Positions 1 through 30,349 of a DNA stretch of 30,773 bases are shown in pieces (position 1 is the stretch's first letter; each line of letters begins with the position of its first letter). The notes under the pieces were generated by a model. It searched no databases. It saw only the letters and a list, made by a program, of their open reading frames with translations, and was not told where the DNA came from. The stretch covers positions 1 to 30,773 of the IMG/VR virus record IMGVR_UViG_3300037423_000302, one strand, 5' to 3'. The stretch comes from a virus (taxonomy: Duplodnaviria > Caudoviricetes). Both the position numbers and the translations under genes were made by a program.

Positions 1-213
1 TAGCATTTGACTCCAAGCATATTCCCGGACATAACGGGATAGAACTGGGGAACTAGCGGATAATACGGCGAAATCATTGATGTTTAATCCTTCTTTCATC
101 CAAGAGCGGCACACTCCACGAATAGCCTTTAAAGCGGCGGCATCAGTGGTAGCAATCCATGTAGACGTTTCGATAACTTCACCCGTTTGCAAATTAGCGA
201 TTTGAATTTTCAT
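1..213 (-). CDS. Small early hypothetical protein, runs off the window edge (MKIQIANLQTGEVIETSTW...)
   Basis: Not in ORF track. GGAGGT SD 8 nt before ATG at 213; frame open for 71 codons to position 1. Confidence 0.7.
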   Translation of the reverse strand, partial: MKIQIANLQTGEVIETSTWIATTDAAALKAIRGVCRSWMKEGLNINDFAVLSASSPVLSRYVREYAWSQML

Positions 214-264
214 TAGTTCATACCTCCGATTTTTAATTTTTGAAATTTGATTTGTGAAACAATC

Positions 265-294
265 ACAGCCCACATACACAGGTATTTGGGCTGT
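265..294. other. Intergenic stem-loop, possible terminator or processing site
   Basis: ACAGCCCA/TGGGCTGT arms plus ATAC/GTAT inner pairs, between two leftward genes; no clear U-tract. Confidence 0.45.
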
Positions 295-316
295 ACATTT
301 ATCCACAAATTGTGAA

Positions 317-940
317 TTAGTTGTTGATAAACTCAATGCGGCAAATAGGCATTCCGTCTTTTCGTTGGTGGAATTCAAATCCAAATTCACCCATATTGTC
401 AATATCCACTTGATTAATTCTAGCTGTTTTCTTGAAAAAGCCAGTATCTTTCAGCAATTGAAAGGCGTCTTTAGAACTAGCGGATTCATGCAATTGCAAT
501 AGTTCATCATCTAAAGTTTCTTCCACACACATGTTATTGATTTCCCAGCCATCCTTTTTATTGCCCCAAACATCGAAATAATTGATAACCTTGATTTGTT
601 TGATACCTTTTGACCACTCAATATGAGCATGAGCGGCGTCCACTAGGTAAGCTGTACCTCTATCTACATTATCCACTTCAATTGTATGCTCCTCTTGGAA
701 TGACTTTGAGTATTGTTTGTTCAATTCACGTATGAATTGTGATTGAATTTTGCTAGTTGTATTGGAGTAACTGGTGCGATTGATGATTAATCCAAGTTCA
801 GAACGTTCAGCCAGACAAGTTGCATAGTTCATTAAACGCTTGCCATCGTTGCTAATCCATAGGTTGCCAGTGTGGGATTCGATATTGGTATTTCCTTGAA
901 AAAACATTTTGATAACCGTTTCATTATTATATTTTGCCAT
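317..940 (-). CDS. Early phage protein, probably two small domains (207 aa)
   Basis: Start moved from 1000 to ATG 940 (GGAGGT SD, 7 nt spacer). YSNTTSKIQ and YFDVWGNKKDGWEINN resemble motifs of uncharacterised phage early proteins. Confidence 0.75.
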   Translation of the reverse strand: MAKYNNETVIKMFFQGNTNIESHTGNLWISNDGKRLMNYATCLAERSELGLIINRTSYSNTTSKIQSQFIRELNKQYSKSFQEEHTIEVDNVDRGTAYLVDAAHAHIEWSKGIKQIKVINYFDVWGNKKDGWEINNMCVEETLDDELLQLHESASSKDAFQLLKDTGFFKKTARINQVDIDNMGEFGFEFHQRKDGMPICRIEFINN

Positions 941-1111
941 TTGTATTACCTCCAGATTTTTATTTGTAGAAACGTGTGATACTACATTTATTGTATCCAT
1001 ATCACATTAAACTTATTCCTACTACAATGTGATAATTTTACGGTAGTAGGTGCGTGACAATATCACATTGAAACTCATTTTGAAAAATCACTTGAGAGAG
1101 TGTTTAAGTTC

Positions 1112-1179
1112 ATGAATTTATTTACTATTGGCTACTACAAATCAGGTAAATATATCATTTCTGTAGTAAATAAATTCAT
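1112..1179. repeat. Perfect 16-bp inverted repeat ATGAATTTATTTACTA / TAGTAAATAAATTCAT, 36-bp spacer
   Basis: Arms read directly at 1112-1127 and 1164-1179. Confidence 0.85.
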
Positions 1180-1311
1180 CAATTAACAAGTTGCTGTACC
1201 AGTGTTTTTCAGATGACTCGGAAATAGTGAGAATATCAAAAATGGCTACTACATTTATTTTTTGTATGCAGTAAGAATATCACAAAAATGACATTGTGAT
1301 GAAAACATGTA

Positions 1312-1339
1312 GAAAAGGCATGTATTTGTAATACATGCC
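1312..1339 (-). terminator. Intrinsic terminator for the leftward small gene
   Basis: GGCATGTATT-ACA-AATACATGCC 10-bp stem followed by TTTTC on the minus strand, 12 nt after the stop at 1352. Confidence 0.7.
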
Positions 1340-1351
1340 ATTGTATAAATA

Positions 1352-1576
1352 TTACTTTGTAATTTTTGTGGCTTTTTTGTATTCACGCTTAATTTTTTGA
1401 AGTTGTAGAATTAAGTCTTGTAGTTGCTCCTCATTAGCAAAAAGTGTGACATCAACCTCAGTAGAATGTAGATTAATAACGTTATAAACGTCATCTGGCG
1501 TACTTGGATTGCTTGTTACATAGCCATCTACTTTTAAAATGTCACGTCTTGCATGGATTGAAAGGGATACACTCAT
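1352..1576 (-). CDS. Small hypothetical protein (~74 aa)
   Basis: ORF track 1352..1585; ATG at 1576 with weak SD; followed by a terminator; C-terminal amphipathic/basic helix. Confidence 0.55.
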   Translation of the reverse strand: MSVSLSIHARRDILKVDGYVTSNPSTPDDVYNVINLHSTEVDVTLFANEEQLQDLILQLQKIKREYKKATKITK

Positions 1577-1604
1577 TAGTTTCACTCACTTTTTAGTTGT
1601 AGTC

Positions 1605-1940
1605 ACACACAATGCACTTGTGTATGCCATTCAGCTAAAAAGCTGAGAGGGCATTTCACCCAGACTGCATACCCTACACGCTCTTTTATCCGGGCTTACC
1701 AGATAACTGCCTGTGCATTGTCGCAAATTGTTCCCCGGCGGTTTAAACCGAGAATTCCCTTTTATAGCGGGGAAGCTGGTGCCTACACCATAGCGGGGGC
1801 TATTTCTACAAATCACCCAAAAATTGTACTCGGTATGAACGGAGTGTCCGGGAGGCAGTCAAGCCGCTCCCCTCTATTTCTCCTTAGTTCCCATCCAAGC
1901 CGCCCCAGCGGGCAACCAAGCAAGGCGGGAACTATTAACT
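1605..1940 (-). ncRNA. Candidate multi-stem structured RNA (~335 nt) or long structured leader
   Basis: GC-rich island with at least 8 nested helices, several closing only with G-U pairs on the minus strand; promoter immediately upstream. Confidence 0.6.
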
Positions 1941-1946
1941 GTGATT

Positions 1947-1976
1947 AGCTTACCATACATTGTATGCACCCGTCAA
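1947..1976 (-). promoter_or_regulatory. sigmaA-type promoter, leftward
   Basis: TTGACG - 18 bp - TAAGCT with extended -10 TG. Confidence 0.6.
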
Positions 1977-2009
1977 GCAGGATATTCATACAATTTTTAA
2001 AAATTTTGT

Positions 2010-2187
2010 GTGTGGGTTTTCAGCCCACTTGACGCTTAACGTTCAACGGCTGGCGGTCTACACTGCCTGACAGACTGTAACCTACTCACCCGCTTCTACT
2101 GCCTGCACCATGGTACCCGTCAGGTATGCCGCTGGGATTTGTTCTTGTAGTACGTTGTCTGAAACTGATGTATTCGCTTGCCTTGAC
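2010..2187 (-). ncRNA. Second candidate structured RNA (~175 nt)
   Basis: GC-rich; helices 2066-2073/2117-2124, 2053-2056/2129-2132, 2012-2016/2024-2028, 2021-2025/2048-2052; weak promoter TTTAAA-17-TAGTAT at 2191-2219. Confidence 0.4.
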
Positions 2188-2429
2188 TTAATACTACTAC
2201 GGGCGTCACAACCTTTAAACCGTCATATTCAGCCGTTTTGGGCAGTTTTTACGGTAAAACCTTCGATTATCTCCGTTTATCTCACTGTATCGCAGTTTTT
2301 CATCTTTTTGTAGTAGATTATGCGATTGTTTCACACTACATTGTTTCACATGTGTGAAATGCTTCACAAACTACATGCGTGTATTTAATAGAAGAAAGTC
2401 GTTTCGGCGGTTTCTGGCGGCGTCTTTAA

Positions 2430-2446
2430 TGCAAGAATCGTGCCAA
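2430..2446 (-). promoter_or_regulatory. sigma54 (sigmaL)-type -24/-12 element
   Basis: Minus strand reads TTGGCACGATTCTTGCA, an exact match to TGGCAC-N5-TTGCA. Confidence 0.55.
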
Positions 2447-2784
2447 CTTTTGTGGTGAATGTGGACGTTATTATTGTACTATAATGTGTATGCTATTTTA
2501 ATATAGTGATTTAAGCACAAATAGTGTAATTTTACACCTACAATTCAAAAAGGCGTATGTATGCCAGAATGACGTATTTGGCGTATGCAGGCTTTTAATT
2601 TTTCAGATACTACGATACCCGGCGGCAATGGTGTACAATGGCGGGCAAATGTGGGCTTCTGGTGATTTTGGCATTCTGGCGGCTGATGGTGTATATTTAC
2701 ACTTTTTGTGTCATTCCCTAGTTCCCAACAAGGCAGGGTGTAACCAGACTGGTGACATGTATTGTAACTGATTACATTACAGGT

Positions 2785-2816
2785 GGGAGCAGGGTGGGTG
2801 GGTATAGGGGTAGGGG
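2785..2816 (+). other. Six G-tracts upstream of the packaging genes (G-quadruplex-capable; candidate pac/terminus region)
   Basis: GGGAGCAGGGTGGGTGGGTATAGGGGTAGGGG, ~190 bp before the putative terS. Confidence 0.5.
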
Positions 2817-2920
2817 TATGCCCCGGTCTGGCTCAAAACTTGAGTCCCTAATCGTACTACGGGCGGGAACTGTGCGGGGGAAACCTTAAAACCCCCTTGG
2901 TGTTGTCCCCTAAAAAACAC

Positions 2921-2950
2921 TTTACTACACCCATGCACATGAAGTATAAT
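2921..2950 (+). promoter_or_regulatory. Probable promoter of the packaging operon
   Basis: TTTACT - 18 bp - TATAAT ahead of an AAGGAGGT SD and ATG 3003. Confidence 0.5.
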
Positions 2951-3002
2951 ACAGATATATAAAAATAAAAAACTACAAATAATTGCAAAGGAGGTATACT
3001 CC

Positions 3003-3401
3003 ATGCTTACCAGTATGCTTGAACAATCGAATGCCCTAGCAGACTACTCACTACCCCAAAAAACAATCCTTATGACACTGGCTGGTAGGTTCCAGTCCCA
3101 GACAGATTACTTATTTCTAAACCCGGAGGAACTACAACAAGAAACTTCCCTAGGTTCCATTGAACAGTGGTATGCTCTACTAAACTTGCAGGAAACTAAG
3201 AACTACATTAAAGGGCAGATGGCGTTCTTGAGTCAAATCGCACAGCGTAAAACGTTTAAGGAACTAGTGGAAATGGCGTTGGATGGTAACCATCAAGCCG
3301 CAAAACAAGTACAGGAGTTAAGTGGCGTCCTTAACCAGCAGGATTCCAATAGAGTCGTAGTGTTGCATAGAATCCCAAGACCAGAACAGGGGGTACAATG
3401 A
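3003..3401 (+). CDS. Probable terminase small subunit
   Basis: Strong SD, 132 aa helical protein, first gene of the packaging operon. Function assigned by position only. Confidence 0.5.
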   Translation: MLTSMLEQSNALADYSLPQKTILMTLAGRFQSQTDYLFLNPEELQQETSLGSIEQWYALLNLQETKNYIKGQMAFLSQIAQRKTFKELVEMALDGNHQAAKQVQELSGVLNQQDSNRVVVLHRIPRPEQGVQ

Positions 3402-3571
3402 TGTGGATTAGTAAAAAGAAATTTAAATATTTACAAGCGTTGATTTTGGCTAATTCAGCTATGCTTACTGCATTGACACAACAACTTGATAATGAAGGTA
3501 AGTTGAATGGTGATAAAGTAATGAAGTTATATGAAGAAGGAATGAATGAATTAAAAGAAATGATTAAATAG
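3401..3571 (+). CDS. Small hypothetical protein (56 aa, MWISKKKFKYLQALILANS...)
   Basis: Not in ORF track. AGGGGG SD, start overlaps upstream TGA, fills the gap; AT-rich. Confidence 0.7.
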   Translation: MWISKKKFKYLQALILANSAMLTALTQQLDNEGKLNGDKVMKLYEEGMNELKEMIK

Positions 3572-3584
3572 GAGGTAAATTAAA

Positions 3585-4262
3585 ATGAATCCAGAAGAAT
3601 TACAACAAATGACACAAGGGGCACCAGAAATGACCCCGGAACAAATGCAATTACAGGAACAGCAAGACCAGCAATTAGCACAGGCAGGGGTAGACCCAGA
3701 GCAAAATCCAGAAGCGGCTAATCAAGCCATGCAAGGTCAACAAGGACAACCAACTGTTATGAGTCCAGACCAATTCGCAGGACAAGGTTTTGAAATGGGT
3801 GGTGAACCACAAGAACCTCAGGAACCAGACGCACAATCCATGTTAAATGAAGTCATCTTGCAGTACATGGATTTCGCCATTGGAATTAAGAATGATAAGG
3901 AACTAGACCAACAAGTTAAGAGTAAAATCATGGCTGAACAGGCTGGTGCCATATCTTCCCTAGTTCAGTTGTTGAATAACAGTGGCGAAATGGAAATGGC
4001 GAAAATGCGTCATGAAATGGATTTGAAATATCAAGAACATGAAATGGATATGCAAATTAAACAGCAGGAATTGGAAATGAAGAAACAGGAAGCAGAATTG
4101 AAACTTCATTTGCAAGCACAACAAGGGCAACAAAAAATACAACAACAAGAGCAACAACATCAGACTAAATTAGTCCAAGGGCAAGAAAGCCATGAAACCA
4201 AGTTACAGCAACAGAAACAAGCCGCACAATCAAAACAGAGTAGTAACCCTAGTAGCAACTAA
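3585..4262 (+). CDS. Gln-rich coiled-coil protein of the head/packaging module
   Basis: AGGAGGT SD; Q/E/M-rich; N-terminus MNPEEL shared with the portal. Confidence 0.8.
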   Translation: MNPEELQQMTQGAPEMTPEQMQLQEQQDQQLAQAGVDPEQNPEAANQAMQGQQGQPTVMSPDQFAGQGFEMGGEPQEPQEPDAQSMLNEVILQYMDFAIGIKNDKELDQQVKSKIMAEQAGAISSLVQLLNNSGEMEMAKMRHEMDLKYQEHEMDMQIKQQELEMKKQEAELKLHLQAQQGQQKIQQQEQQHQTKLVQGQESHETKLQQQKQAAQSKQSSNPSSN

Positions 4263-4264
4263 AC

Positions 4265-5776
4265 ATGTCTACTTGCTATAACTGCAAAGTTGGTGAAATG
4301 GTATCTCCTCCAGACCAACATCCTGCATACCTACAATGCAATTCCTGTATGGCGATTGAGTTAACATACAACCCACAGGATTACCAAGAGGAAATGCACA
4401 CAGTTAAGACAGGACAAGAGGATGATACTGACATTATAGCTGTATTCGGTGGATACGGTTCTGGTAAATCTAAAGCAACCTTAGAGGAATTTCTTCTAAG
4501 GGCTTTAGAGAATCCAAGAGGTAGCGGTCTGTTTGCGGCACAGACTTTGGGACAGTTGAAAAAGACAACTTTAAAGACATGGTTTGAAGAAGTATGTCCT
4601 CCTCCCCTCATTGAAAGCTATAATAAAACTGACGGAATTATCAAACTAGTCAATGGGTTTACTATCTTTATTGTAGCAACGGACGAAGAACAAAAAATAC
4701 GTTCCTTAAACTTAGGATTGGCACACGTGGAGGAGATTTCTGGTATCAAGAAATCCATCTACACACAGATTCAATCCCGTATGCGTGACCCATTCACACG
4801 TAACAAGGCAATCATTGTTTGTTCTAACCCGGCTAACACATGGATTAAGGATGTGTTCGTTGACAATGAAGCACGTAAAGACCCAAAACATCCACAGCAC
4901 AGCGAATATAACCGCTTCATGCGTACATTTGTCTGGAGAACTGAACTGAATAAGTACTTACCAGCCAACTTTATTGAAATGAACACCATTGGTAAGCCAG
5001 AATGGTACAGAAAGAAATACTTTGAAGGTTCTTTTGAATACAATAGCGGTATGGTATATCCAGAAATAGCAGATACATTTATTGACCCATACCCAGTTAC
5101 AAAAGATACTGACGAATATGGTATACCTAAAGACTGGGAACGTATGGTAGCCATGGACTATGGTTTACGTAACCCTACAGCTGTTCCATTTGGTGCCATC
5201 AATCCTAAAACTGGTGAAGTAGTTATTTTCAATGAGTATTATGTAGCTGAAAAAACACTACCTTATCACGCTAATAAACTAAAACCTTTGATTGATAAGA
5301 TTCCCTCAGGTCTTCTCAGGTTTTTAGTGGCTGACCCTGCCATCAAGAACAGGATGAATGACGTTATCTCCGGGAAAAACATACAATCTCACTTTATGGA
5401 GTACGGCATATTCTGGGCACTTGGTAATAACAACTTAGAATACGGACTGGCTAAAGTAAACTCCTACATCGAAGCTGGCAAACTGAAAATCTACAAGACC
5501 TGTGTAAACCTAATCAAAGAACTCTTGCAGTACACATATCCAGAAGTGGACATAGACAATGCAGACGAAAATCTGGATGAAAAACCAGAGAAGAAAAATG
5601 ACCACTTGTGTGACGCATTGAGATACATGATTGCGAGATTACCAGATGACCCAGAACATTTAAAATTGTCATCTTATAATCCACCAAAATCGTATGCAGG
5701 ATATGGAAACTATGATACAATTGAGTATGACGATGAACTTCCAGAGAAATTTGAGGATTATCTAGCCTATTATTAG
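4265..5776 (+). CDS. terL: Terminase large subunit
   Basis: Walker A GGYGSGKS, Walker B AHVEE, coupling motif CSNP, nuclease motifs MDYG and NDHLCDALRY; N-terminal CxxC...CxxC. Confidence 0.95.
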   Translation: MSTCYNCKVGEMVSPPDQHPAYLQCNSCMAIELTYNPQDYQEEMHTVKTGQEDDTDIIAVFGGYGSGKSKATLEEFLLRALENPRGSGLFAAQTLGQLKKTTLKTWFEEVCPPPLIESYNKTDGIIKLVNGFTIFIVATDEEQKIRSLNLGLAHVEEISGIKKSIYTQIQSRMRDPFTRNKAIIVCSNPANTWIKDVFVDNEARKDPKHPQHSEYNRFMRTFVWRTELNKYLPANFIEMNTIGKPEWYRKKYFEGSFEYNSGMVYPEIADTFIDPYPVTKDTDEYGIPKDWERMVAMDYGLRNPTAVPFGAINPKTGEVVIFNEYYVAEKTLPYHANKLKPLIDKIPSGLLRFLVADPAIKNRMNDVISGKNIQSHFMEYGIFWALGNNNLEYGLAKVNSYIEAGKLKIYKTCVNLIKELLQYTYPEVDIDNADENLDEKPEKKNDHLCDALRYMIARLPDDPEHLKLSSYNPPKSYAGYGNYDTIEYDDELPEKFEDYLAYY

Positions 5777-5795
5777 GAGAAAAGGGGAGATTTTA

Positions 5796-6065
5796 ATGAG
5801 TAATGTGAGAATTACACAAGACCAGATTAACGATATCTTAGCCAATTCAGAGAAAAAAGTTTTTAAATTTTTTGACAAGACTACATTAGTTGTAGTTAAA
5901 CTGCCTAATGGATTTGTAATCTCTGAATCTTCCAGCTGTGTAGACCCGGCTAACTTTGATGAAGTCATTGGATATGAAATCTGTATGGACAGAATCGAAA
6001 ATAAAATCTGGGAATTAGAAGGGTACGCCTTACAAAAGAAGGTGCATGAGAATGGCAGTCGCTAA
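5796..6065 (+). CDS. N4 gp49/Sf6 gp66 family protein (possible Acb4-type nucleotide sponge)
   Basis: Family-like sequence LPNGFVISESSSCVDPANFDEVIG...KIWELEGY; 89 aa. Confidence 0.8.
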   Translation: MSNVRITQDQINDILANSEKKVFKFFDKTTLVVVKLPNGFVISESSSCVDPANFDEVIGYEICMDRIENKIWELEGYALQKKVHENGSR

Positions 6066-6378
6066 GAAATACAATTACCGTATTCAGTACATCGACAATA
6101 CCTATCAAATCGTAGATTGGACAAAGGCTGAATTAAAATCAGTCAGTATTGCCATGGCGAATGAAGTCCCTGCTATATTGGTGGGTGAGGACGTATTCCG
6201 CACTACAGATATCCGGGCTATTGTATATCTTCCTCCAGTTCCAGTACCTACCGAAGCTGAAATAAAGGCAGAACAGGAGAAACAAGCAAAAGAAGAATGG
6301 GATTTTGTGGACGCTCAAACAAAGAAATGGCTGAAAGAGCAAGGTATTTTACCAACAACGGGAGGTGCTAACGAATGA
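6052..6378 (+). CDS. Hypothetical protein
   Basis: AAGGTG SD 7 nt before ATG 6052; overlaps both neighbours. Confidence 0.75.
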   Translation: MAVAKKYNYRIQYIDNTYQIVDWTKAELKSVSIAMANEVPAILVGEDVFRTTDIRAIVYLPPVPVPTEAEIKAEQEKQAKEEWDFVDAQTKKWLKEQGILPTTGGANE

Positions 6379-8408: not shown

Positions 8409-8422
8409 TTGTATGTTATAAT
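8394..8422 (+). promoter_or_regulatory. Strong sigmaA-like promoter overlapping the portal stop
   Basis: ATGACA - 17 bp - TATAAT with extended -10 TG. Confidence 0.6.
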
Positions 8423-8462
8423 GAAAACGTGCAGAATTCAGATGTTGGAGGATATCTCCCCC

Positions 8463-8494
8463 AAAGAGCCTACTTAACGGTAGGCTCTCTTTTT
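8463..8494 (+). terminator. Intrinsic terminator overlapping the 3' end of the convergent hydrolase gene
   Basis: AGAGCCTAC-TTAACG-GTAGGCTCT followed by CTTTTT. Confidence 0.8.
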
Positions 8495-8839
8495 ATGTCC
8501 AAACATCCACTTAATTCCCATTGGTGTACTTGAATCCATGGCAAGATGTAGTAGGTATCCTCCAGCAAAGAGAATACACCATTTCCATGAATACCAAATA
8601 CCTATTGGGGCTGAAAATAATAACAAACCGCAAATACTGTGAGTGAAACCACGATGACGAAAAACCAGCCAAAGAGGAATGAACTTTCCAATAGTGGACT
8701 GGCGTATATCGCAATCTGGAAAGACAGAACCAATAATAAAAGGAATAGGGTTAAGAAAAACATCTTCAACACCAACTTGTATAAGAATCCACACAATTAA
8801 AGCAAACCCCCAATGTATTCGTCCAGAGAAAGCACACAC
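8474..8839 (-). CDS. Membrane-bound metal-dependent hydrolase (YdjM/DUF457-like); start uncertain
   Basis: Motifs GRIH, GSVFPDCD, HRGFTHS, GYLLHLAMDSST-MGI and hydrophobic helices; inverted within the late operon. Confidence 0.85.
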   Translation of the reverse strand: MCAFSGRIHWGFALIVWILIQVGVEDVFLNPIPFIIGSVFPDCDIRQSTIGKFIPLWLVFRHRGFTHSICGLLLFSAPIGIWYSWKWCILFAGGYLLHLAMDSSTPMGIKWMFGHKKRAYR

Positions 8840-8862
8840 CCCCTTTAAATTTTCCCTAGTTC

Positions 8863-8891
8863 TATTATCCCCTAGTTCCACTACAAAATAC
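8863..8891 (-). promoter_or_regulatory. sigmaF/sigmaG-like (forespore) promoter candidate
   Basis: GTATT - 15 bp - GGGATAATA, close to the B. subtilis sigmaF consensus GYATA-15-GGnAwAmTr, just upstream of the hydrolase SD. Confidence 0.45.
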
Positions 8892-8925
8892 ATGATAAAA
8901 AACATACATATTTAGTAATTATATG

Positions 8926-8955
8926 TAGACAAGTGGACGAACGTTCTGTTATATT
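8926..8955 (+). promoter_or_regulatory. Promoter for the scaffold/capsid operon
   Basis: TAGACA - 18 bp - TATATT with extended -10 TG. Confidence 0.6.
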
Positions 8956-9051
8956 AAATATAGAAACTTTCGCCATTCTGGAGCGGAAACCAGAAACTTA
9001 CAATCTATAATTTCGCAGACCCATGCGTAAAAAGGGAAAGGGGTAGTAACC

Positions 9052-9966: not shown

Positions 9967-9982
9967 TTAGGAGGGACAAATT

Positions 9983-10489: not shown

Positions 10490-10521
10490 CCAACTACAAC
10501 TAATTAAGGAGGGAAACTACG

Positions 10522-11448: not shown

Positions 11449-11460
11449 TAACTAACCTTA

Positions 11461-11489
11461 AAGGGGTGGGCTACTGCCCATCCCTTTTT
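11461..11489 (+). terminator. Intrinsic terminator after MCP
   Basis: AAGGGGTGGGC-TACT-GCCCATCCC followed by TTTTT. Confidence 0.85.
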
Positions 11490-11508
11490 AATATGAGGAG
11501 GGAAAACA

Positions 11509-12003: not shown

Positions 12004-12004
12004 T

Positions 12005-12031: not shown

Positions 12032-12050
12032 AAAATAAGGAGGGAGAAAC

Positions 12051-18621: not shown

Positions 18622-18636
18622 CTTAATGTAGTAGTA

Positions 18637-18645
18637 TGCTATAAT
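18637..18645 (+). promoter_or_regulatory. Extended -10 promoter for the ejection-protein module
   Basis: TGCTATAAT directly after a terminator, 40 nt before ATG 18686; no good -35. Confidence 0.55.
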
Positions 18646-18685
18646 AGTTGTAGTTATTACGTGAAAATAATGAGGAGGTACAATA

Positions 18686-20164: not shown

Positions 20165-20952
20165 ATAGTGGTGGAGGGAGTGGTGCAAGTGCCGCTATCC
20201 AAGCTGGGATGAAATATATCGGTAAATCCACTTACGTATGGGGTGGGGGACGGACGGCGGCGGACATAGCCGCTGGACGTTTCGATTGTTCTGGATTCGT
20301 AAACTACGCATTCAAACAAGCTGGTATTAACTTGGGTAACGGTAATACGGATACAATTGCGAAGATGGGACAAAAAGTTACTGGCGGATTGCAAGTCGGT
20401 GACATTGTGTTCTTTGATACGTATAAGAAAAATGGTCACGTGGGTATCTACATTGGTAACGGTAAGTTCATAGGTTCTCAGTCATCAACTGGTGTAGCCA
20501 TAGCTGATATGAATAGCGGCTACTGGAAAGACCACTACAAAGGGTACGCTGTTCGTGTAGGCGGTGGTACAGGTGGCGGTACATCTAACCTAGGGAATTT
20601 ACCTAACAGTGGTGGATACACGAACTATACAAAATACGGTAAACAACCATCCAGCTTTAATACACAAATGCAACAGGCAATCAGCCGGGGTGTTCCATTT
20701 GCTGAAGCTAAAGGACTTACTGAACTTATTGGACGAGAATCAAGCTGGAACCCATCAGCTAAGAATCCAAAATCCACAGCCTATGGATACGGACAATTCC
20801 TTAGTTCCACTAGGTCAAGTTATGAGAAGAAAATGAAAATGAGTTATTCTGACCCGGTAAACCAGATTCTTATGACTTATCAGTATGTAAAGGACAGGTA
20901 CGGTTCAGTAGCGGCGGCATTAAAGTTCTGGGATAAAAATAAATGGTACTAG
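20161..20952 (+). CDS. NlpC/P60 peptidase plus lysozyme-fold (SLT-like) domain, probably made as a frameshift extension
   Basis: YVWGG, FDCSGFV, GDIVFF, HVGIYIG (NlpC/P60); RESSWNP, AYGYGQFL, YVKDRYG (transglycosylase-like). No well-spaced SD before ATG 20209. Confidence 0.85.
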   Translation, partial: LNSGGGSGASAAIQAGMKYIGKSTYVWGGGRTAADIAAGRFDCSGFVNYAFKQAGINLGNGNTDTIAKMGQKVTGGLQVGDIVFFDTYKKNGHVGIYIGNGKFIGSQSSTGVAIADMNSGYWKDHYKGYAVRVGGGTGGGTSNLGNLPNSGGYTNYTKYGKQPSSFNTQMQQAISRGVPFAEAKGLTELIGRESSWNPSAKNPKSTAYGYGQFLSSTRSSYEKKMKMSYSDPVNQILMTYQYVKDRYGSVAAALKFWDKNKWY

Positions 20953-20964
20953 GGGTGAATATAC

Positions 20965-23900: not shown

Positions 23901-24549
23901 TAACAAAGTGGTCAAGAAAATCCGTCATGGCGGGGAAGTCATTGATGATGTATCCCGTTTAGCAAACTTCTTAAATGGCGTTGATAAATTCGGCAGTACA
24001 GCGAAAGCCGCACAGCAAGTACGGAAATACCTGTTCAACTACAACGAATTAACTAACGCAGATAGAGGAATGCGTGTCTTAGTTCCGTTTTGGAACTGGA
24101 TGAAACGTAACATCCCGCTTCAGTTAAAACTACTGCAAGAGACACCGGGATTCGCTTTAAATGTTGAGAGATTCAAAGATTACTGGAATGATGGGGAAAA
24201 AGGTGCAGATTGGCAGAAGGAATCCGGGCTTAAATTTGGTGACTACTACACGACTTTACCTTCTCCTACGAATGATTTAAGTACCGTCTTAAATCCAATG
24301 GATTCCCTAGGTTCGCTTACACCAGCTATTAAAATGCCTATAGAAATGAAAACAAACAAAAGCCTGTTCACAGGTAACCCAATTAGTTACGGTTCAAATG
24401 AACTACAGAATGAGGATATGTTATCCTACATCATGTCTAACTTGGGTATCGGAAACAACGTTTATCAAGGTGTAACTGGTGACAAATCCGCTTTTGAAAA
24501 AATCATGAGTGTGATTAAACCAGTATCCAGAGTGAATCCAAATCAATAG
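20965..24549 (+). CDS. Large internal virion / DNA-ejection protein (1194 aa)
   Basis: Largest, helical, last gene before lysis; DIAADPLTYLTLG, NYFPH and LVPFWNWMKRN segments seen in podovirus ejection proteins. Confidence 0.7.
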   Translation: MAASKEIQAATNSANAQIEALMKQLGGMSYSRPSSYSGYQSGYTPVDRSLPDWKPADLDVGDFISLAKEKKDGKSKVNLWDVLSGTLGQPSGLATSSIYNTVKTLTDKDTPLWKKLFTAANPLNDAIGQALKNGGKEQWKDWKDGKLSWGDVPGVGFLHGMDKGYKRGGDIMRDIAGVENKWGVMGGGLAIDIAADPLTYLTLGASAASKVSKAAEAAEMANQARKLGLNSTKFKNAAEFQAAAEAKLAERYAKYPNLSQSMAKAKAGTMRNEIAEKSAEAARALTQRLATKKTDEAMQAINAARAKAFNSNVNSFGFSVPFTNKVGIAGQYGEKMMGGLLKNPLYRSEATVGNDLVENLLKTATGGDSALAKQFEDIAKTRLGISDISQMTKTQFDELHEFLQPLIQQLSKGGLPDVEVVSKIVENVMPQADFDRLMTEFVNQNIPWKDVQKQLNGFMSVIGKDPVLRETAGKVMAQKIADFWAKKAIRARKPANVLENAAKSDSMGWASRFLGGSGKYQTVENTVKAVHPKGNPTSIVEASGQIQKLGQVQKDGRAIGKAMDDLENTPYARLSDTKTTFEHFLDRNNPFDSRTLNTSDKFLNTMGDHISDAHSQRVGETAMYSKDLSQIQKFVKDGGYTDKEMQEAIYALENHFPSSYGKNYTPTTRVQELADTLKPIIQRIGDNETAGGVLSKLRANYFPHVRNFEGDSMEAIADYMARNRSLLGLKSNNAFNNARKGFQTLAERDNYIEKVRKAIQKETDPATIESLEKHLESVAKMFDTNVVTALTRRVREGVRAKAMKAMQGELSKFGMMKTIKKGSGEAPPSGFKRLEPDEVKKLGLPEGTHYMHPEVFKALQRTDEIFTNEGMNKAARFVSAIGDIWRPLVTYYKPAHYINNMIGNTINNMAAGVKVRDVKNASKLLMKYRKGTLNDEEMKIIKAAYKHNVISGGFLFDSRPTFEFDKPWAIEKFAEKVGDNKVVKKIRHGGEVIDDVSRLANFLNGVDKFGSTAKAAQQVRKYLFNYNELTNADRGMRVLVPFWNWMKRNIPLQLKLLQETPGFALNVERFKDYWNDGEKGADWQKESGLKFGDYYTTLPSPTNDLSTVLNPMDSLGSLTPAIKMPIEMKTNKSLFTGNPISYGSNELQNEDMLSYIMSNLGIGNNVYQGVTGDKSAFEKIMSVIKPVSRVNPNQ

Positions 24550-24561
24550 GAGGAGAAGGGG

Positions 24562-24801
24562 ATGACACATGTGCCTTATAAATGCGAATGTGAGGGGAGG
24601 GTTACCTCCTTGGAAATTCGTATGGCTGTTGCTGAAAGTGATATCAAAAACGTCAGAGAAGACATTTCATCAATCAAGGATGATACAAAATGGCTACGTA
24701 GAGCGATTACAAATGCTCTTATAGTAGGCGGCATTACACTAGCTGTTGGTGTAGTGTCCGCTGTAATAATCTTTATTATGAAGGGAGGAACTATTTCATG
24801 A
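24562..24801 (+). CDS. XhlA-like lysis membrane protein
   Basis: Coiled coil then IKDDTKWLRR and one C-terminal TM helix; first lysis gene. Confidence 0.8.
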   Translation: MTHVPYKCECEGRVTSLEIRMAVAESDIKNVREDISSIKDDTKWLRRAITNALIVGGITLAVGVVSAVIIFIMKGGTIS

Positions 24802-24977
24802 CCAAAACAATGATTGCTCCTATCGTTGCTGTAGTTGCTTTATTCGTCAAAGCTGTATTCAATGTTGAAATCCCAGAAACAGTACAGGCTGATATTGCTA
24901 CGTATATTGTTGGTGGTGTTGCCTTAGTTACAACCGTCATCGGCATTTGGAAGAACCATAGAAAGGGTGAAAAGTAA
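24798..24977 (+). CDS. Holin (59 aa, two TM helices)
   Basis: Not in ORF track. MTKTMIAPIVAVVALFVKAVF...VIGIWKNHRKGEK; GGGAGG SD; ATGA and TAATG overlaps. Confidence 0.85.
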   Translation: MTKTMIAPIVAVVALFVKAVFNVEIPETVQADIATYIVGGVALVTTVIGIWKNHRKGEK

Positions 24978-25819
24978 TGGGCTATGATATAGTATTATCC
25001 TACGGACATGGTGAAGAAACGTATCGTGTAAAACACTCAAAGGGTGTAACTGTAAACGGGGTTCAATATGCAGAGCATACACATAACTACCAAGTTGGTA
25101 CACGTGTAAAGGCTATTGTTGAAAGACATGGGGTGAGTGTTCTTGAGGTACAACCACCTAACGGAGTAGACATACCGCTCAGAATGAGAACAGACAAAGC
25201 GAATGCCGCTAACGTCAAACTCTATTACTCTATTCACTCAAACTCTGGTGCTTCTACTGCACGTGGCTGGTGTGGATTCTACTGGTCTACTTCTGCCGCT
25301 GGCAAACGGATTGCTGAAATTTATGCCCGGAATATGGCGGCTATTGGTCTTCCACTCTATCATGGTGGTACATGGGGGTCTGTGAAAGGAACGTGGAATG
25401 ATTTCCATGAACTAAGGGAGACTCACATGGTTGCCTTACTCACAGAGAACGGATTCATGACTAACCCAGAGGATTTCCAATATATCTTTTTAAACAAGGA
25501 CGGATACTGGGATAGAATGGCTGAAGCACACGCTAAAACCATTCTTGAATACTTGGGTAAGGCTTACATTGAAAAAGCCCCAGAACAGGCTCCTGTGGCT
25601 CCTACGCCTGTGGCTCCATCTGATACATTCAGAATCAAGGTTATCACACAAGACCTATGGTATTATGACCGTCCAGACTGGAACGCTAAAAAGGCTCTTG
25701 TACACGCCGGGGATGTGTTCACTGTAGTTGAGACTCTTGTAGTGAATGGCTCCAAGATGTATAAGCTGAAATCTGGCACATACATCACAGCCAGCCCTAA
25801 ATATGTACAGGTAATGTAA
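24977..25819 (+). CDS. Endolysin, N-acetylmuramoyl-L-alanine amidase (Amidase_3) with C-terminal cell-wall binding domain
   Basis: GHG, EHTHN, SIHSN, LTENGFMTN motifs; Pro/Ala linker; SH3-like tail MYKLKSGTYITA. Confidence 0.92.
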   Translation: MGYDIVLSYGHGEETYRVKHSKGVTVNGVQYAEHTHNYQVGTRVKAIVERHGVSVLEVQPPNGVDIPLRMRTDKANAANVKLYYSIHSNSGASTARGWCGFYWSTSAAGKRIAEIYARNMAAIGLPLYHGGTWGSVKGTWNDFHELRETHMVALLTENGFMTNPEDFQYIFLNKDGYWDRMAEAHAKTILEYLGKAYIEKAPEQAPVAPTPVAPSDTFRIKVITQDLWYYDRPDWNAKKALVHAGDVFTVVETLVVNGSKMYKLKSGTYITASPKYVQVM

Positions 25820-25822
25820 AAC

Positions 25823-25849
25823 AAAAACCCACTCTTATGAGTGGGTTTT
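25823..25849. terminator. Bidirectional terminator between convergent modules
   Basis: AAAACCCACTC-TTAT-GAGTGGGTTTT. Confidence 0.85.
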
Positions 25850-26230
25850 GTCGTACCAGTCAAGGGCACGTTTGGCATAGTCAACCATTTTAACATAGTC
25901 TTCTCTACCATTCTTGTAATTTGCCCTTTGTGCATATTTTATAATGTGACCTAGGGCAAATCCCATGAATACTTCTTTTGGGAATCCCTCTTGTAAAAAT
26001 TTAATGGTGTCAATGTTATGCTGGTGATAATGTTGCGGCTCATTGTATTCTGGATGTGTTGGTGTTGGTGTTGGTGTTTTTGCTAATCCTTTTTTCAAGT
26101 CTTCCCCTAGTTCATAACATGGAATACAAAGTGTTTTACCGTCTGGTAGTAATGCTCTTTTATCCATTAAAGATAGACTACGCTGACATACATAACAAAA
26201 TTTTATTTCTTCACTGAATTGTTTCAGCAT
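25835..26230 (-). CDS. DUF3310 (SaV-like) protein with N-terminal zinc finger
   Basis: PQHY...IDTI...GHIIKY..RA.YKNG.ED..K..Y; N-terminal CYVC...CIPC. Confidence 0.8.
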   Translation of the reverse strand: MLKQFSEEIKFCYVCQRSLSLMDKRALLPDGKTLCIPCYELGEDLKKGLAKTPTPTPTHPEYNEPQHYHQHNIDTIKFLQEGFPKEVFMGFALGHIIKYAQRANYKNGREDYVKMVDYAKRALDWYDKTHS

Positions 26231-26924
26231 GGGCTGAAATCACTCCTCTAAAATTTTTAGATAATGTACAAATTTGTGCGAATGATTGACCATCATAGTG
26301 CATAAGATAAGGCATAAAGCCAGATTTGCGTGGGTCTGGTAAATCACATTGTTCTGGGTCACCAATGAGGATAACATGACAGCTATCATGTATGCGGGTA
26401 AGTATTTTCCTTAGTTCCCGTTTTGTAAGATTTTGTCCTTCATCAATTACTACAACGCAATCCTTTAGGTTACTACCACGCATGTAGTTATGCGAATACG
26501 CATGTACCCAAGGGGCACCTTCTTTGATTGGTTTTGGATTCTTAACCTTGTACTTATTTTTCTTATTCCTTGGTTCCACTTGCTCCTCTTGGTCTTCCTT
26601 TTGATTCAAAGGATTAAAGATAGCTTTGAATGGAATCTCATTAATTTCAGTAAGAGCGTCATACAATGGCTGGAGATATTTAGATTCTTTCGCTTTGATA
26701 TCACCTGTAGAAAATCCCAATGCCTTTTCTTCTACAGTAGGGAAGATGTAATGTAGTTCTTTACCAAGTAGTTTTGCTACACCTACAGCAACCGTTGTTT
26801 TACCACTACCAGATACCGCATGACATCCTGTAAACAAATTATCATGGCATGAATCGGCATAAAACTTTTGTTCATCTGTCAATCGTAAACCAAAGAATAA
26901 TTCTGCGGATTTAGGTAGCGGCAT
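26211..26924 (-). CDS. phoH: PhoH-family ATPase
   Basis: AVSGSGKT, LGFSTGD, YLQPLYDAL, YMRG, IDEGQN, ILTRI, GDPEQCD. Confidence 0.92.
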   Translation of the reverse strand: MPLPKSAELFFGLRLTDEQKFYADSCHDNLFTGCHAVSGSGKTTVAVGVAKLLGKELHYIFPTVEEKALGFSTGDIKAKESKYLQPLYDALTEINEIPFKAIFNPLNQKEDQEEQVEPRNKKNKYKVKNPKPIKEGAPWVHAYSHNYMRGSNLKDCVVVIDEGQNLTKRELRKILTRIHDSCHVILIGDPEQCDLPDPRKSGFMPYLMHYDGQSFAQICTLSKNFRGVISAHAETIQ

Positions 26925-27139
26925 TAATCTTCATCCTCCTCAAAGTCTTCCTCAATAACCATCATTTCTACTTCTCCACCCATCATTAGGTGAAAGTGTA
27001 AAATCAAATCCATTACAATGTCAGTAATATCAAGAATTTCATCTTCTGCTGGAGCGTAACCCATTTCAACCAATGATTCAAACAAATGCTGTGCTACTTC
27101 ATCATACGTAAAGATAACATCTTTGGGTTGCTCTGACAT
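26924..27139 (-). CDS. YozD-like small acidic protein
   Basis: EVAQHLFESLVEMGYAPAEDEILDITDI matches my recollection of the Bacillus YozD pattern (EIA.FF..EL..RGY.P.E.E...IADI). Confidence 0.65.
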   Translation of the reverse strand: MSEQPKDVIFTYDEVAQHLFESLVEMGYAPAEDEILDITDIVMDLILHFHLMMGGEVEMMVIEEDFEEDED

Positions 27140-27151
27140 TGGTAACTCCCC

Positions 27152-27976
27152 CTACCACATAGTTTTAATTTCACCATACCTTTTAATCAAGTAATCTACT
27201 AGCGGCTCATTTGGGTTTTGCTCACTGTCTGGATTAAGTGCCAATGCGTGTAATTCGTTTAGGAACTGATGAACTGTTATTCCCTTAGTTTTCAGTTTAC
27301 GATTTACTTCTTTCCATTGAAGCACTGGGGTACCACAACATTCGTAGAAAGCATCCCATAGTTCCTTATCTACATGATAACACAATTGAAACATACCTTC
27401 TATAACTTTTACTGTATTACCTTGTGCCCCTTTGTCCCATATACGCTGTGGGAAAATAGACTGACCTAGGGTAAGAAAATTGAATTGATAACAGAATGTA
27501 TTCATCTTTGCATTCACTGGCATAGCGGCTCTTGCAACCTGTGGAGTTTCTCCTATTTTTAATAATTTTTTGTAATTATCCATTGATTCTGAAATATAAC
27601 TATCCACTAGTTCTGGATATTTTACTTTATCAGATGGAGTTACATAATCATTTGAAGTCAAAGCACGATTGCCACCAGCTACCCGCATGTCACGTGTGGT
27701 GTAAGTGATGATGTGGTCATAAACTTCTTTAGACACATCAATGAATTCAAATTCCACATGCTCTCCTCTGAATATCTCAGGTACATGTCCTTTACGAAGG
27801 ATGGACAAAGGACGCCTAATGTTGTATCTATCTTCTTTTCCTAGGTAGATTGCCGCATTTTTAGCAAGCCGCTTACGGTCTGGGTCTGTGTATAATGACA
27901 TCCTAATTGAAAACGTGTCACCGATATACACCCAACATTCTGTACTTTCTTCAAACATAATTCTTGCTCCACTCAT
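27152..27976 (-). CDS. Divergent ThyX-like (flavin-dependent thymidylate synthase fold) protein
   Basis: GH...FEFIDVSKEV, YKKLL..G...QVARAAMP, NF..L...R....AQ follow the ThyX layout, but the RHRx7SxR motif is replaced. Confidence 0.65.
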   Translation of the reverse strand: MSGARIMFEESTECWVYIGDTFSIRMSLYTDPDRKRLAKNAAIYLGKEDRYNIRRPLSILRKGHVPEIFRGEHVEFEFIDVSKEVYDHIITYTTRDMRVAGGNRALTSNDYVTPSDKVKYPELVDSYISESMDNYKKLLKIGETPQVARAAMPVNAKMNTFCYQFNFLTLGQSIFPQRIWDKGAQGNTVKVIEGMFQLCYHVDKELWDAFYECCGTPVLQWKEVNRKLKTKGITVHQFLNELHALALNPDSEQNPNEPLVDYLIKRYGEIKTMW

Positions 27977-28467
27977 TTGAACACCTTCCCTTTATTAAAT
28001 TTATTAAAGTACAAGTCGTGCCTTAATGCGTCCCGTTTGTGCATGTTGGTTTCTTCACCCTTGTAGTAATACTTTTGTCCTTTACGTACTACAATTCCTG
28101 CACGAATGAGTATTGCGTCTGCATGACGTTGTTTTGTACTTGGGTCTTGTAAAAATGTAGGTATGTTCATTTCATAACAGACCATTTCCAGATAACCAAT
28201 TAATTGCGGTGTTTCTAGTGAACTACCAGTCTGCTCTTTTGATTTATGTCCAAACAATCTATAAGACTCAATAACTACTACATCCGGGAATGTGGTCTCA
28301 ATCAATTCCTTATGGGCAAACCAATACGCATTGCGGCTTTTGTAACTTTCTGCTTTAATATCCCCTAGTTTAGATGGCAAGTGACCATCTAAACTAATGG
28401 AATATCCTGTAGTTCCAAACCCTTCTGTGTAGTTGCCGCTGGGGTCAAATGCCAAGACCTTTACCAT
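27973..28467 (-). CDS. RuvC-like Holliday junction resolvase
   Basis: Start moved to ATG 28467 (GGAGGT SD, 8 nt). VLAFDPSG...TTG, PDVVVIE, HKRDA acidic catalytic pattern. Confidence 0.8.
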   Translation of the reverse strand: MVKVLAFDPSGNYTEGFGTTGYSISLDGHLPSKLGDIKAESYKSRNAYWFAHKELIETTFPDVVVIESYRLFGHKSKEQTGSSLETPQLIGYLEMVCYEMNIPTFLQDPSTKQRHADAILIRAGIVVRKGQKYYYKGEETNMHKRDALRHDLYFNKFNKGKVFK

Positions 28468-28720
28468 AAATCCATACCTCCGATACCGTTTGATGATTGG
28501 AAAATCTATGTTTGAGGAAATTAATATCATCTGTTGCCATAAGACTGTTTTCATCCCATCCCTCAAACCATAATACTTTTGTTTTTTCTTTATCTAATCC
28601 GTAACATTCATGTGGATAACCAGCCCTATAATAAGCATATTCAGTACGATTAAATCCTCGGTTCCTTAAATACGTAGCATACTGACTAAAGTTAGCGGCA
28701 ACTACGATGGCTTTAATCAT
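28445..28720 (-). CDS. Hypothetical protein
   Basis: AAAGGAG SD; overlaps the downstream start. Confidence 0.7.
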   Translation of the reverse strand: MIKAIVVAANFSQYATYLRNRGFNRTEYAYYRAGYPHECYGLDKEKTKVLWFEGWDENSLMATDDINFLKHRFSNHQTVSEVWIYGKGLGI

Positions 28721-28721
28721 C

Positions 28722-28844
28722 TTAATACTCCTTTTCTATCTCAATTACTAAAAATCCTAAAAAAATACCAAATGATTTGTAAGATTTATCATAAATGACT
28801 CCAACTAAGAAATGTTCCCAGTTCCATCCGAATCTGGCTACCAT
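28722..28844 (-). CDS. Small hypothetical protein (40 aa, MVARFGWNWEHFLVGVIYDK...)
   Basis: Not in ORF track. GGGGTGA SD, first gene after a promoter, stop 1 nt before the next ATG. Confidence 0.6.
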   Translation of the reverse strand: MVARFGWNWEHFLVGVIYDKSYKSFGIFLGFLVIEIEKEY

Positions 28845-28873
28845 TCACTCACCCCATTTACCTATTTGAAAGT

Positions 28874-28902
28874 AGTATAACATACAACATATGACATAGC
28901 AA
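28874..28902 (-). promoter_or_regulatory. sigmaA promoter for the leftward DNA-metabolism block
   Basis: TTGCTA - 17 bp - TATACT with extended -10 TG. Confidence 0.7.
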
Positions 28903-28925
28903 TAAAATTCATGCCACATACAGGA

Positions 28926-28953
28926 AACTTTTTGGATGGTAGTGCATATAGTT
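28926..28953 (+). promoter_or_regulatory. sigmaK/sigmaE-like (mother-cell) promoter candidate
   Basis: AC (28927-8) - 16 bp - CATATAGT fits AC...CATAnnnT; directly before the SD of the cassette; I saw no sigmaA match on this strand. Confidence 0.45.
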
Positions 28954-28973
28954 TAGTAAAGGGGGTTGCTACC

Positions 28974-29126
28974 ATGGTAGTAAAGATAAACGGCAAACCG
29001 ATTCAAGTCAAAGAGGATGAAGCAAAGGACATTGATTGGATTCTGCTTGCTCTGACCGTCATTGGCTATGGACTAATTTTCTGGATTGTTCGCTTGGCAT
29101 TTGTAACTTTTGTGGGGGTGCTGTAA
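28974..29126 (+). CDS. Small membrane protein (50 aa)
   Basis: Start moved to ATG 28974 (AAAGGGGG SD); hydrophobic C-terminal half; TAATG coupling to the ATPase. Confidence 0.75.
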   Translation: MVVKINGKPIQVKEDEAKDIDWILLALTVIGYGLIFWIVRLAFVTFVGVL

Positions 29127-30349
29127 TGTGGTGGAAAAAGAAACATCCTTTAGTTCGGAGAATGCTTAACGTATTGCTGGAGAAAAAATTTGATGGCGGC
29201 TGGATTAACAAAGTGTACAGAGAAGGGGATGTCCTATATGCAAACGTTTATCTACCAGAACAAAAAGAACTTTCGGACTTGGAGAAAATATTACCGAATT
29301 TGCAACAGGAAGTTGGAGCCACAGCGGTCAAACTGGGGAAAATAAGCGGCAAGCGTGTGGAGATTAAATTTGGAATGCGGGAACTAACGGAGATTAAATT
29401 CAATGAATCCTCCCTAGTTCCCAACAGCCTTAAATTAAAATTCCCATCTGCCTACGGGGAAGCGGTATTAGATTTTGAGGACGGAGCAAGCTGTCACATG
29501 CTCAATGGCGGGGTCACACGTATGGGAAAGACCTGTTTCCTACTGTTCCTAGCCACAAGCATTTACATTCAAAATGAGGGCAATGTAGGGCTTTATATCA
29601 GTAGTGCCAAACTAAAAGATTATTACCCGTTTGAGGGATTGCCGGGAGTGGAAATGACACGTGATGTTGAGTCCATGGAACGTATGTTAGAAGAAATCAT
29701 AACTGAATACAAATTTAGAGACTCAATGTTATACTCTAGTTTCCTCAACAAAGCTACAGACGCAAAGAGTGTTCGTAAACTATACCCACAATATTATCAC
29801 CTATTCAAACCAATCTTTTTAATCATTGACGAATATGCCCGTTTTGCTGAATCCAAAAATGTACAGCAGATGGTCACTGAAATTGTAGAAACGGCTGGAT
29901 TTGTTAATATCCACGTCATACTAGCCAGCCAAAGACCTGACGCTTCTACCGTATTAAGACCACGAATTAGGGCAAACATGCTATGTAGAATGGCATTCAC
30001 AACCGCAGACAGGAAGAACAGTGAAGTCATACTTGACCGGGAAGGAGCAGAGAAACTAGGGAAAATAGCAGGGAGGGGAATGCTACTTGATTCAGATTTA
30101 CATGTCATACAGGTTCCTTATTTAGATGTAGTAGACTGTGACAAATTATTGGAGGTCTATAGGAATGAACAAAGTAGAACGGGACAATGTAGTATTGGAA
30201 ATGGTGACGAAATTCAAAGTATGCTCAAGGAACCAACTGGCATGGATGGTATGCCGCCAGAACAGCAACCCAATCAACGTGGTGAACAGGGTATTGAAAC
30301 GTATGACGTTGAATGGCTGTTTAACCCAGATTCAGAGGGAAAGGGATAA
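29126..30349 (+). CDS. FtsK/SpoIIIE-family (coupling-protein-like) ATPase, 407 aa
   Basis: Start moved to ATG 29126 (GGGGGTG SD). Walker A GGVTRMGKT, Walker B LIIDE, ASQRPD, GAEKL...GRG; no TM segment or gamma domain. Confidence 0.9.
   Translation: MWWKKKHPLVRRMLNVLLEKKFDGGWINKVYREGDVLYANVYLPEQKELSDLEKILPNLQQEVGATAVKLGKISGKRVEIKFGMRELTEIKFNESSLVPNSLKLKFPSAYGEAVLDFEDGASCHMLNGGVTRMGKTCFLLFLATSIYIQNEGNVGLYISSAKLKDYYPFEGLPGVEMTRDVESMERMLEEIITEYKFRDSMLYSSFLNKATDAKSVRKLYPQYYHLFKPIFLIIDEYARFAESKNVQQMVTEIVETAGFVNIHVILASQRPDASTVLRPRIRANMLCRMAFTTADRKNSEVILDREGAEKLGKIAGRGMLLDSDLHVIQVPYLDVVDCDKLLEVYRNEQSRTGQCSIGNGDEIQSMLKEPTGMDGMPPEQQPNQRGEQGIETYDVEWLFNPDSEGKG

Follow-up and report, generated by a model that had tools for sequence, protein, structure and literature searches.

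The window analysed here is the whole stretch of 30,773 nt at positions 1-30,773 of the Caudoviricetes record IMGVR_UViG_3300037423_000302. It carries terminase, portal, capsid, tail, lysis, PhoH, ThyX-like, FtsK-like and replication-relaxation-type genes, and a short asymmetric motif is dispersed through these genes and the DNA between them. The guanine-plus-cytosine (GC) content is 40.2%, where the initial annotation of this DNA had put it at about 38%. The window belongs to an API480-like phage; the nearest named phage found is Paenibacillus phage API480 (MK533143.1), described as a podovirus (PMC6937236), with 35% identity in the terminase. From the gene neighbours and the avoidance of short words, the host is probably a member of the Bacillales, and the same features suggest a lytic lifestyle. 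A 42.7-kb contig, G001, matches the window with full identity across 29,175 bp and contributes the replication arm, which sits just past the window end and encodes a PolB-like polymerase, DUF669, AAA_24, PD-(D/E)XK and SNF2 proteins, and a 949-aa protein in which a DnaG-type primase is fused to an MCM helicase (primase-MCM). A capsid search of genome contigs gave no match.

In the window, we found 16 exact copies of the core CCCTAGTT, 12 on the plus strand and 4 on the minus strand, the same count as in the initial annotation. Its variants were also recovered, with five copies of CCTTAGTTCC, three plus-strand copies and one minus-strand copy of CCCTAGGTT, four minus-strand copies of CCGCTAGTT and one copy per strand of CCACTAGTTC, and every copy that it listed lies where it had been placed. 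The variants collapse into one gapped site, T-N-C-N-N-T-A-G-(T/G)-T (TNCNNTAGKT), which is ten bases long with seven specified. A position weight matrix (PWM) was built for the motif and used with a threshold of 10 bits; the whole array, the sites of at least 15 bits, all exact cores and the gene of the proposed reader are as follows.

48..30064, both strands: dispersed array of 63 PWM sites (43 on plus, 20 on minus), consensus tT(t/c)CnnTAG(T/g)T(C/t)
48..61, minus: site in upstream non-coding DNA, 15.6 bits
1879..1892, plus: site in non-coding DNA, 16.0 bits
2713..2726, plus: exact-core site in non-coding DNA ahead of the packaging genes, 19.2 bits
3145..3158, plus: site, TAGGT variant, 15.4 bits
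3259..3272, minus: site, 17.4 bits
3955..3968, plus: exact-core site, 18.0 bits
7216..7229, minus: exact-core site in the portal gene, 19.9 bits
8851..8880, plus: two tandem exact-core sites in a leftward YdjM-like gene, 16.6 and 19.5 bits
12005..12018, plus: exact-core site, intergenic, 12.2 bits
13088..13101, plus: exact-core site, 17.8 bits
13635..13648, plus: site, TAGGT variant, 16.6 bits
14088..14101, plus: site, 16.8 bits
16563..16576, plus: site, 16.2 bits
17189..17202, plus: exact-core site, 17.5 bits
17363..17376, minus: exact-core site, 17.0 bits
20047..20060, plus: site, 18.5 bits
20796..20809, plus: site overlapping a second site at 20805-20818, 17.7 bits
21032..21045, minus: exact-core site, 15.1 bits
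21057..21070, plus: exact-core site, 15.9 bits
22929..22942, plus: exact-core site, 19.8 bits
22976..22989, minus: site, 15.8 bits
24302..24315, plus: site, TAGGT variant, 15.7 bits
25407..25420, minus: site in the endolysin gene, 17.2 bits
25946..25959, minus: site, TAGGT variant, 15.3 bits
26102..26115, plus: exact-core site in a leftward gene, 19.3 bits
26406..26419, plus: site in the leftward PhoH gene, 18.2 bits
27353..27366, plus: site in the leftward ThyX-like gene, 15.7 bits
28360..28373, plus: exact-core site, first of three sites in 60 bp, 17.1 bits
29409..29422, plus: exact-core site in the FtsK gene, not conserved in the relative G002, 16.7 bits
30051..30064, minus: exact-core site in the FtsK gene, 18.2 bits
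L036:8035-10884 of G001, beyond the window end: 949-aa primase-MCM gene, the proposed reader

The initial annotation had expected fewer than one core by chance, and our null models gave the same result. The 16 cores compare with 0.81 expected under an order-3 Markov model, with a maximum of 5 in 1000 synonymous-codon shuffles in which intergenic DNA was fixed, and with a mean of 0.63 and a maximum of 4 in 500 shuffles of codons and intergenic DNA; the enrichment thus survives the codon-preserving shuffle that had been proposed as a check. The gapped site occurs 67 times in the window (41 on plus, 26 on minus) against 11.8 expected and a maximum of 23 in 500 shuffles, which is about two sites per kb rather than the one per kb first estimated. 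In G001, a single-base change at any specified position brought the count to or near background, the largest residual counts being those for C in place of T in TAG (17 vs 8.8) and for C at the first position (9 vs 3.1), and the three N positions tolerated most bases. Logos of single positions anchored on TAG or CAG gave a weak signal because the signal is joint. The 16-bp identity reported between positions 2715 and 29411 is real, and it is of a kind expected by chance (p=0.22), with no conservation of the FtsK copy in G002.

We regard it as scarcely credible that the motif reflects host background or is a side effect of codon or codon-pair bias or of restriction avoidance. Sixteen short words are wholly absent from the genome, and this absence explains most of an excess of GCGGC. 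When these words were kept absent in the shuffles, there were still 14 coding copies of the core against 0.5 expected (maximum 3 in 60 shuffles) and 63 gapped sites against 10.5, and in G001, of the five reading frames in which the gapped site creates no stop, four show its enrichment. Codon usage therefore does not account for the motif, as the initial annotation had held, since the enrichment persists under both the synonymous-codon and the avoidance-respecting shuffles. The sequence TCCCTAGTTC has 6 copies in the 30.8-kb window; in 121 genomes from the phylum to which a Thermoclostridium genome belongs, it never exceeds 2.8 per Mb, and the 10-mer is thus at background level in this stand-in for the host. 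These results support a phage-specific, genome-wide DNA signal.

The 16 absent words, which include GATC, GGCC, GCGC, CGCG, GCAGC/GCTGC, GGACC and AGCTC and nine more of 5-6 bases, are a case of extreme restriction-site avoidance that is largely common to G002 and G003. Under the avoidance-respecting null, the window also has an excess of AGCGG (76 vs 54), which we take to be the Bacillus Chi site, of CCCGG (35 vs 14) and of GGTCA (85 vs 60), and the GCGGC excess (92 vs 74) is mostly a by-product of word avoidance. AAGCGG is also a top word in phage Page.

Across phage lineages, sister words with a YAG core track the primase-MCM gene over podovirus and siphovirus morphogenesis modules. G002 and G003 share the word of G001, with TAGTTCC as their lineage word, G004 uses CCTTAG and G005 uses TTCTTCAGTTC; siphoviruses with the same primase-MCM and another virion module carry CCGCAG (BSP7, Youna2 and Wollypog) or TCGCAG (Manatee), and a further primase-MCM clade carries TTGTAG/TAGTAG words. 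The fusion was found in 74 loci, in phages of varied GC content, and loci shorter than 10 kb or 12 kb, depending on the set, were excluded from the lineage comparison. The core YYNYAG was written down before further loci were seen, and in the held-out test 28 primase clusters were compared with 36 controls (random viral loci, FtsK phages and DnaG-only loci) and with 46 loci carrying SNF2 only; BboS-125 was dropped as a control because codon-pair bias swamps its signal. YNYAG was positive in 22 of the 28 primase clusters, whereas the controls had 10 positives among 36 (p=1e-6) and the SNF2-only loci 21 among 46 (p=6e-4), and it ranked first of 64 patterns of the same form. Among longer genomes, the top 6-mer included YAG in 18 of 24 (23% expected) against 2 of 8 controls, a count that is biased upward because 13 of the 24 were fetched after their loci had been seen. 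In G009 (L300-L302), TAGTAG occurs 197 times against 62 without strand bias, and a second word, CGCCGC, occurs 61 times against 9.7.

Only two G001 genes span the motif-bearing lineages, primase-MCM (74/74 loci, by construction) and SNF2. It is rather unlikely that another replication-recombination part reads the site, be it the MCM half in loading or restart, or SNF2 or the PD-(D/E)XK nuclease with the site as a Chi-like signal. SNF2 is present in 63 of the 74 primase loci, the MCM half alone is common to phage phBC6A51, which has a weak excess of the word TACAGC, and a gapped site in both orientations also fits a duplex reader. On the other hand, the 46 SNF2-only loci showed no YNYAG excess (median -0.01), homologs of the nuclease, AAA_24 and DUF669 were not detected within about 10 kb on each side of the TTGTAG/TAGTAG clade loci, and the core of the motif equals known DnaG triplets. 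We know of no case in which MCM or SNF2 motors act as sequence readers.

The lead idea of the initial annotation was that the phage FtsK-relaxase pair, whose genes lie at the right end of the window, uses the copies for loading or polarity.

29126..30725, plus: FtsK-like ATPase gene (29126-30349) and replication-relaxation-type gene (about 30165-30725), context, rejected as motif reader

G001-G005 all have this cassette together with a word, and their strand bias is moderate. The co-occurrence check came out the other way, as all five phages with the cassette and without primase-MCM (Bfsp1, Page, Wbeta, PT9.1 and BhaS-171) are without the word, and BSP7 and Youna2 have sister words and no FtsK gene in their complete annotations. 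Moreover, little of the FtsK alignment extends past the motor domain, and it shows no conserved domain for reading DNA at the C-terminus; we consider this idea very improbable. FtsK/SpoIIIE polarity sites (KOPS/SRS) were also tried as a class for the motif and rejected, the strand bias being 2:1 only in place of a strong polarity, without translocase co-occurrence.

The cassette as a whole (28911-30725) consists of a small membrane protein gene, the FtsK-like gene and the replication-relaxation-type gene, and is transcribed opposite to the surrounding arm; the FtsK frame runs about 185 nt into the next gene. The closest named FtsK is that of the phi29-like Cytobacillus phage Bfsp1 (48%), and the cassette thus moves between unrelated phages. 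The terminase of G004 and G005 is split into two frames in the open reading frame calls (L039-L049, covering G002, G004 and G005), possibly by an intron or insertion.

The sites tilt about 2:1 toward the plus strand, with both strands used. For the exact core, the split was not significant in the window (12/16 on plus, p=0.077) or in the longer G001 (16/27, p=0.44), and the PWM sites were the only significant set (43/63 in the window, p=0.005; 64/94 in G001, p=0.0006). The initial annotation had noted that the plus bias holds inside leftward genes; the bias itself is there (31 vs 14 in G001), and the shuffled expectation is tilted as well (4.4 vs 0.9). Site orientation is not tied to transcription direction. 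When orthologous genes were compared, G001 and G002 had 50 and 45 sites with 12 shared, and G001 and G003 had 56 and 47 with 11 shared, indicating that density is kept and position is not. Conservation in related phages, which had been proposed as a check at synonymous sites, was thus not seen at the level of site positions.

These strand and turnover results bear on two further proposals made at first. The copies could mark places where one strand of virion DNA is nicked in a programmed way, as happens in T5, tf and phiKMV-like phages. In favour are the tilt of G001-G005, all in total toward the coding strand of the structural genes, and some superficial resemblance to the nick consensus of phiKMV, CCTA/CTCCGG (PMC3517423). 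Like the consensus of those nicks, the motif is short and asymmetric and recurs throughout a phage genome. As described in the same source, however, the 14 tf sites lie on one strand only, as do the sites of LUZ24-like phages, and both lie at similar positions among relatives (PMC3517423), whereas here about a third of the 94 G001 sites are on the other strand (64 vs 30), positions turn over between G001 and G002, and the word follows the primase across podovirus and siphovirus morphogenesis modules. Nick sites are improbable on these grounds. We also give little credence to sites of a phage repressor, a stoperator-type regulator or a genome-coating protein. An asymmetric site of 10-11 bp lying mostly in genes would suit such a protein, and G001 encodes a 59-aa helix-turn-helix protein. 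Stoperator sites are oriented with transcription and have one cognate repressor in common; here orientation is independent of transcription, positions are not conserved, and motif-bearing lineages share no candidate repressor, the 59-aa gene occurring in 2 of 74 primase loci and not being found in G002 despite the same word. Methyltransferase families had no match among 45 non-structural G002 proteins.

From sequence comparison, it is rather probable that the DnaG-type primase-MCM encoded by this phage recognises the motif as its site, around a CTA/CTG triplet. The 949-aa protein has a CHC2 zinc finger, a TOPRIM domain and an MCM domain (Pfam Zn_ribbon_DnaG, Toprim_2 and MCM), and its best solved relative is Aquifex DnaG (2au3, E=3e-16), with MCM chains next. 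The zinc cysteines and acidic TOPRIM residues (C26, C52, C55, E192, D194, D233, D235, D271 and D274) are invariant across six homologs, so G001 encodes an intact primase with zinc-binding domain and TOPRIM. A single-sequence AlphaFold model of the protein was unusable (pLDDT 37). For initiation, DnaG primases use a triplet with a cryptic third base that the zinc-binding domain reads (PMC6163395, PMC2532735), under a rule of purine start and central pyrimidine (PMC2532735), and the triplets are CTA/TTA in Firmicutes and CTG/CTA in Proteobacteria, with two residues of the zinc-binding domain switching between them (Larson et al. 2010, PMC2978363). On either strand, the phage word offers a triplet (CTA/CTG or NYA) whose central base is a pyrimidine and whose third base would be cryptic, with a purine start for the primer.

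In the mechanism that we propose, the MCM helicase half would expose single-stranded template, the primase would start an RNA primer at each motif copy in lagging-strand synthesis, and the phage polymerase would extend it; a preferred direction of the forks would account for the 2:1 strand bias. A requirement for seven bases, not three, would make chance sites rare, and selection would therefore write sites into synonymous and intergenic positions. For the template, we lean slightly toward the strand 5'-A(A/C)CTA-NNGNA-3', on which an A would be cryptic, a gapped element would lie 3' and the primer would be pppAG(U/G)U, much as bacterial priming uses CTA/CTG; this would keep the bacterial pppAG start and place the gapped bases on the cryptic side. 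In the other reading, the YAG strand would be the template (5'-(C/T)TA with a cryptic AGTT flank), and forks would be co-directional with the genes in BSP7. Skew at four-fold sites did not decide the fork direction. At window positions 1-3100, no origin-like repeat cluster was seen; two inverted repeats (18 nt with a 10-nt loop, and 19 nt with a 36-nt spacer) lie in non-coding DNA at 1025-1182, upstream of the leftward gene 317-1000.

Bacterial Okazaki fragments are 1-2 kb long (PMC2978363). In three genomes, the sites on one strand were evenly spaced (p<0.001 each), namely in BSP7 (26 sites, 1.9 kb, coefficient of variation (CV) 0.38), Youna2 (33 sites, 1.5 kb, CV 0.53) and G005 (31 sites, 1.25 kb, CV 0.53). 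Known primase sites served as positive controls under the same shuffle. In T7, (G/T)(G/T)GTC occurred 187 times against 137 on the plus strand (z 5.3; z 2.3 on minus), with GGGTC, TGGTC and GTGTC enriched on at least one strand and TTGTC, which has a lesser role among T7 primase sites, on neither; GCA was not enriched in T7. In SP6, its primase triplet GCA was enriched (z 4.2 and 6.3), and in 50 of the 169 kb of T4, GCT, one of the two T4 primase triplets together with GTT, was enriched. The top 7-mers of T7 (L217) under the codon shuffle were CTCTAAG (24 vs 4.7), CTCAAAG (20 vs 5.1) and CGCTAAG (25 vs 7.4).

Several results weigh against the primase as reader. Across the family the effect is small, with a median log2 of 0.07; 6 of the 28 held-out clusters were not positive, and many relatives have a weak signal: Krampus has no YAG word among its enriched words, and in API480 there are no copies of CCCTAGTT and the YAG word is weak. 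Close SNF2 homologs all co-occur with the primase, so that SNF2 is separated by distant homologs only; primase-MCM phages differ from the controls in poly-A avoidance, so lifestyle confounds the control set; and phBC6A51, with MCM and an AEP primase, has a weak top word that contains YAG (TACAGC, 57 vs 27). Characterised DnaG sites are 3-5 nt long, and seven specified bases would be unusual. The two readings of the template strand are almost evenly matched. Zinc-finger residue 19 ranks first of 885 columns for predicting TAG or CAG, which is not significant, as 15% of null labelings equal it, and its held-out split was weak (7/14 vs 6/23); this test left out L129, whose word resembled a local one-strand repeat, and L124 and L134, for which no whole protein was readable. 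Even spacing was not seen in G001-G004 (G001 plus strand CV 0.84, p=0.09), only 5 of 22 genomes had a strand with p<0.05, of which 3 survive correction, and the fragment L064 passed the spacing test while its whole contig, G010, failed it. In the T4 portion, the GTT site was not enriched.

Compared with known systems, the proposed primase-site system shares with bacterial DnaG the CHC2 zinc finger and TOPRIM, and the phage word core is the complement of CTA or CTG. It differs in having seven specified bases over ten, lineage-specific flanks and strong genome-wide enrichment, and in its fusion to an MCM (superfamily 6, SF6) helicase, where bacterial DnaG partners DnaB. T7 gp4 is likewise a phage primase-helicase fusion with a short core, a distal gapped element and genome-enriched sites with a strand tilt, its primase reading the pentamer (G/T)2GTC and also a gapped element 3' of the core (PMC12839067), but its core is another one, its helicase is of the DnaB type (SF4), and its sites are enriched about 1.4-fold, where the 10-mer of this phage reaches about 6-fold. 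BcMCM of phBC6A51 is also a primase-MCM fusion of a Bacillus phage, as described for that protein (PMC3273815), with about 25% identity over the MCM half; it has an AEP-type primase, does not align to the N-terminus of the protein studied here, and goes with no strong motif. API480 is alike in the primase (30%) and the two-arm gene order, in addition to the terminase, and differs in having weak enriched words only and no FtsK cassette. A literature search, with subscription journals largely outside its scope, found neither enriched or evenly spaced phage primase sites nor a biochemical study of a DnaG-MCM fusion, and the passages on such enzymes in a survey of viral replication proteins describe divergent SF6 helicases with AEP or DnaG primases and give no sites (PMC4889955).

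In our view, the chances are evenly balanced that this uncharacterised, widespread DnaG-MCM family reads long, gapped, lineage-specific sites, with Okazaki starts hard-coded in coding DNA, sometimes as a 1.2-1.9-kb one-strand ladder. The DnaG-MCM fusion suggests that a primase of bacterial type acts together with a 3'-5' helicase of archaeal/eukaryotic type. It is not settled how primases pick a small number of start sites out of many triplets; a primase that requires a gapped ten-base site, with natural variants in dozens of lineages and BSP7 on Bacillus subtilis as a culturable example, would make that question testable. If the proposal is true, primase specificity could be read straight from the genome sequence, and the sites would be a hidden constraint for the recoding of such phage genomes.

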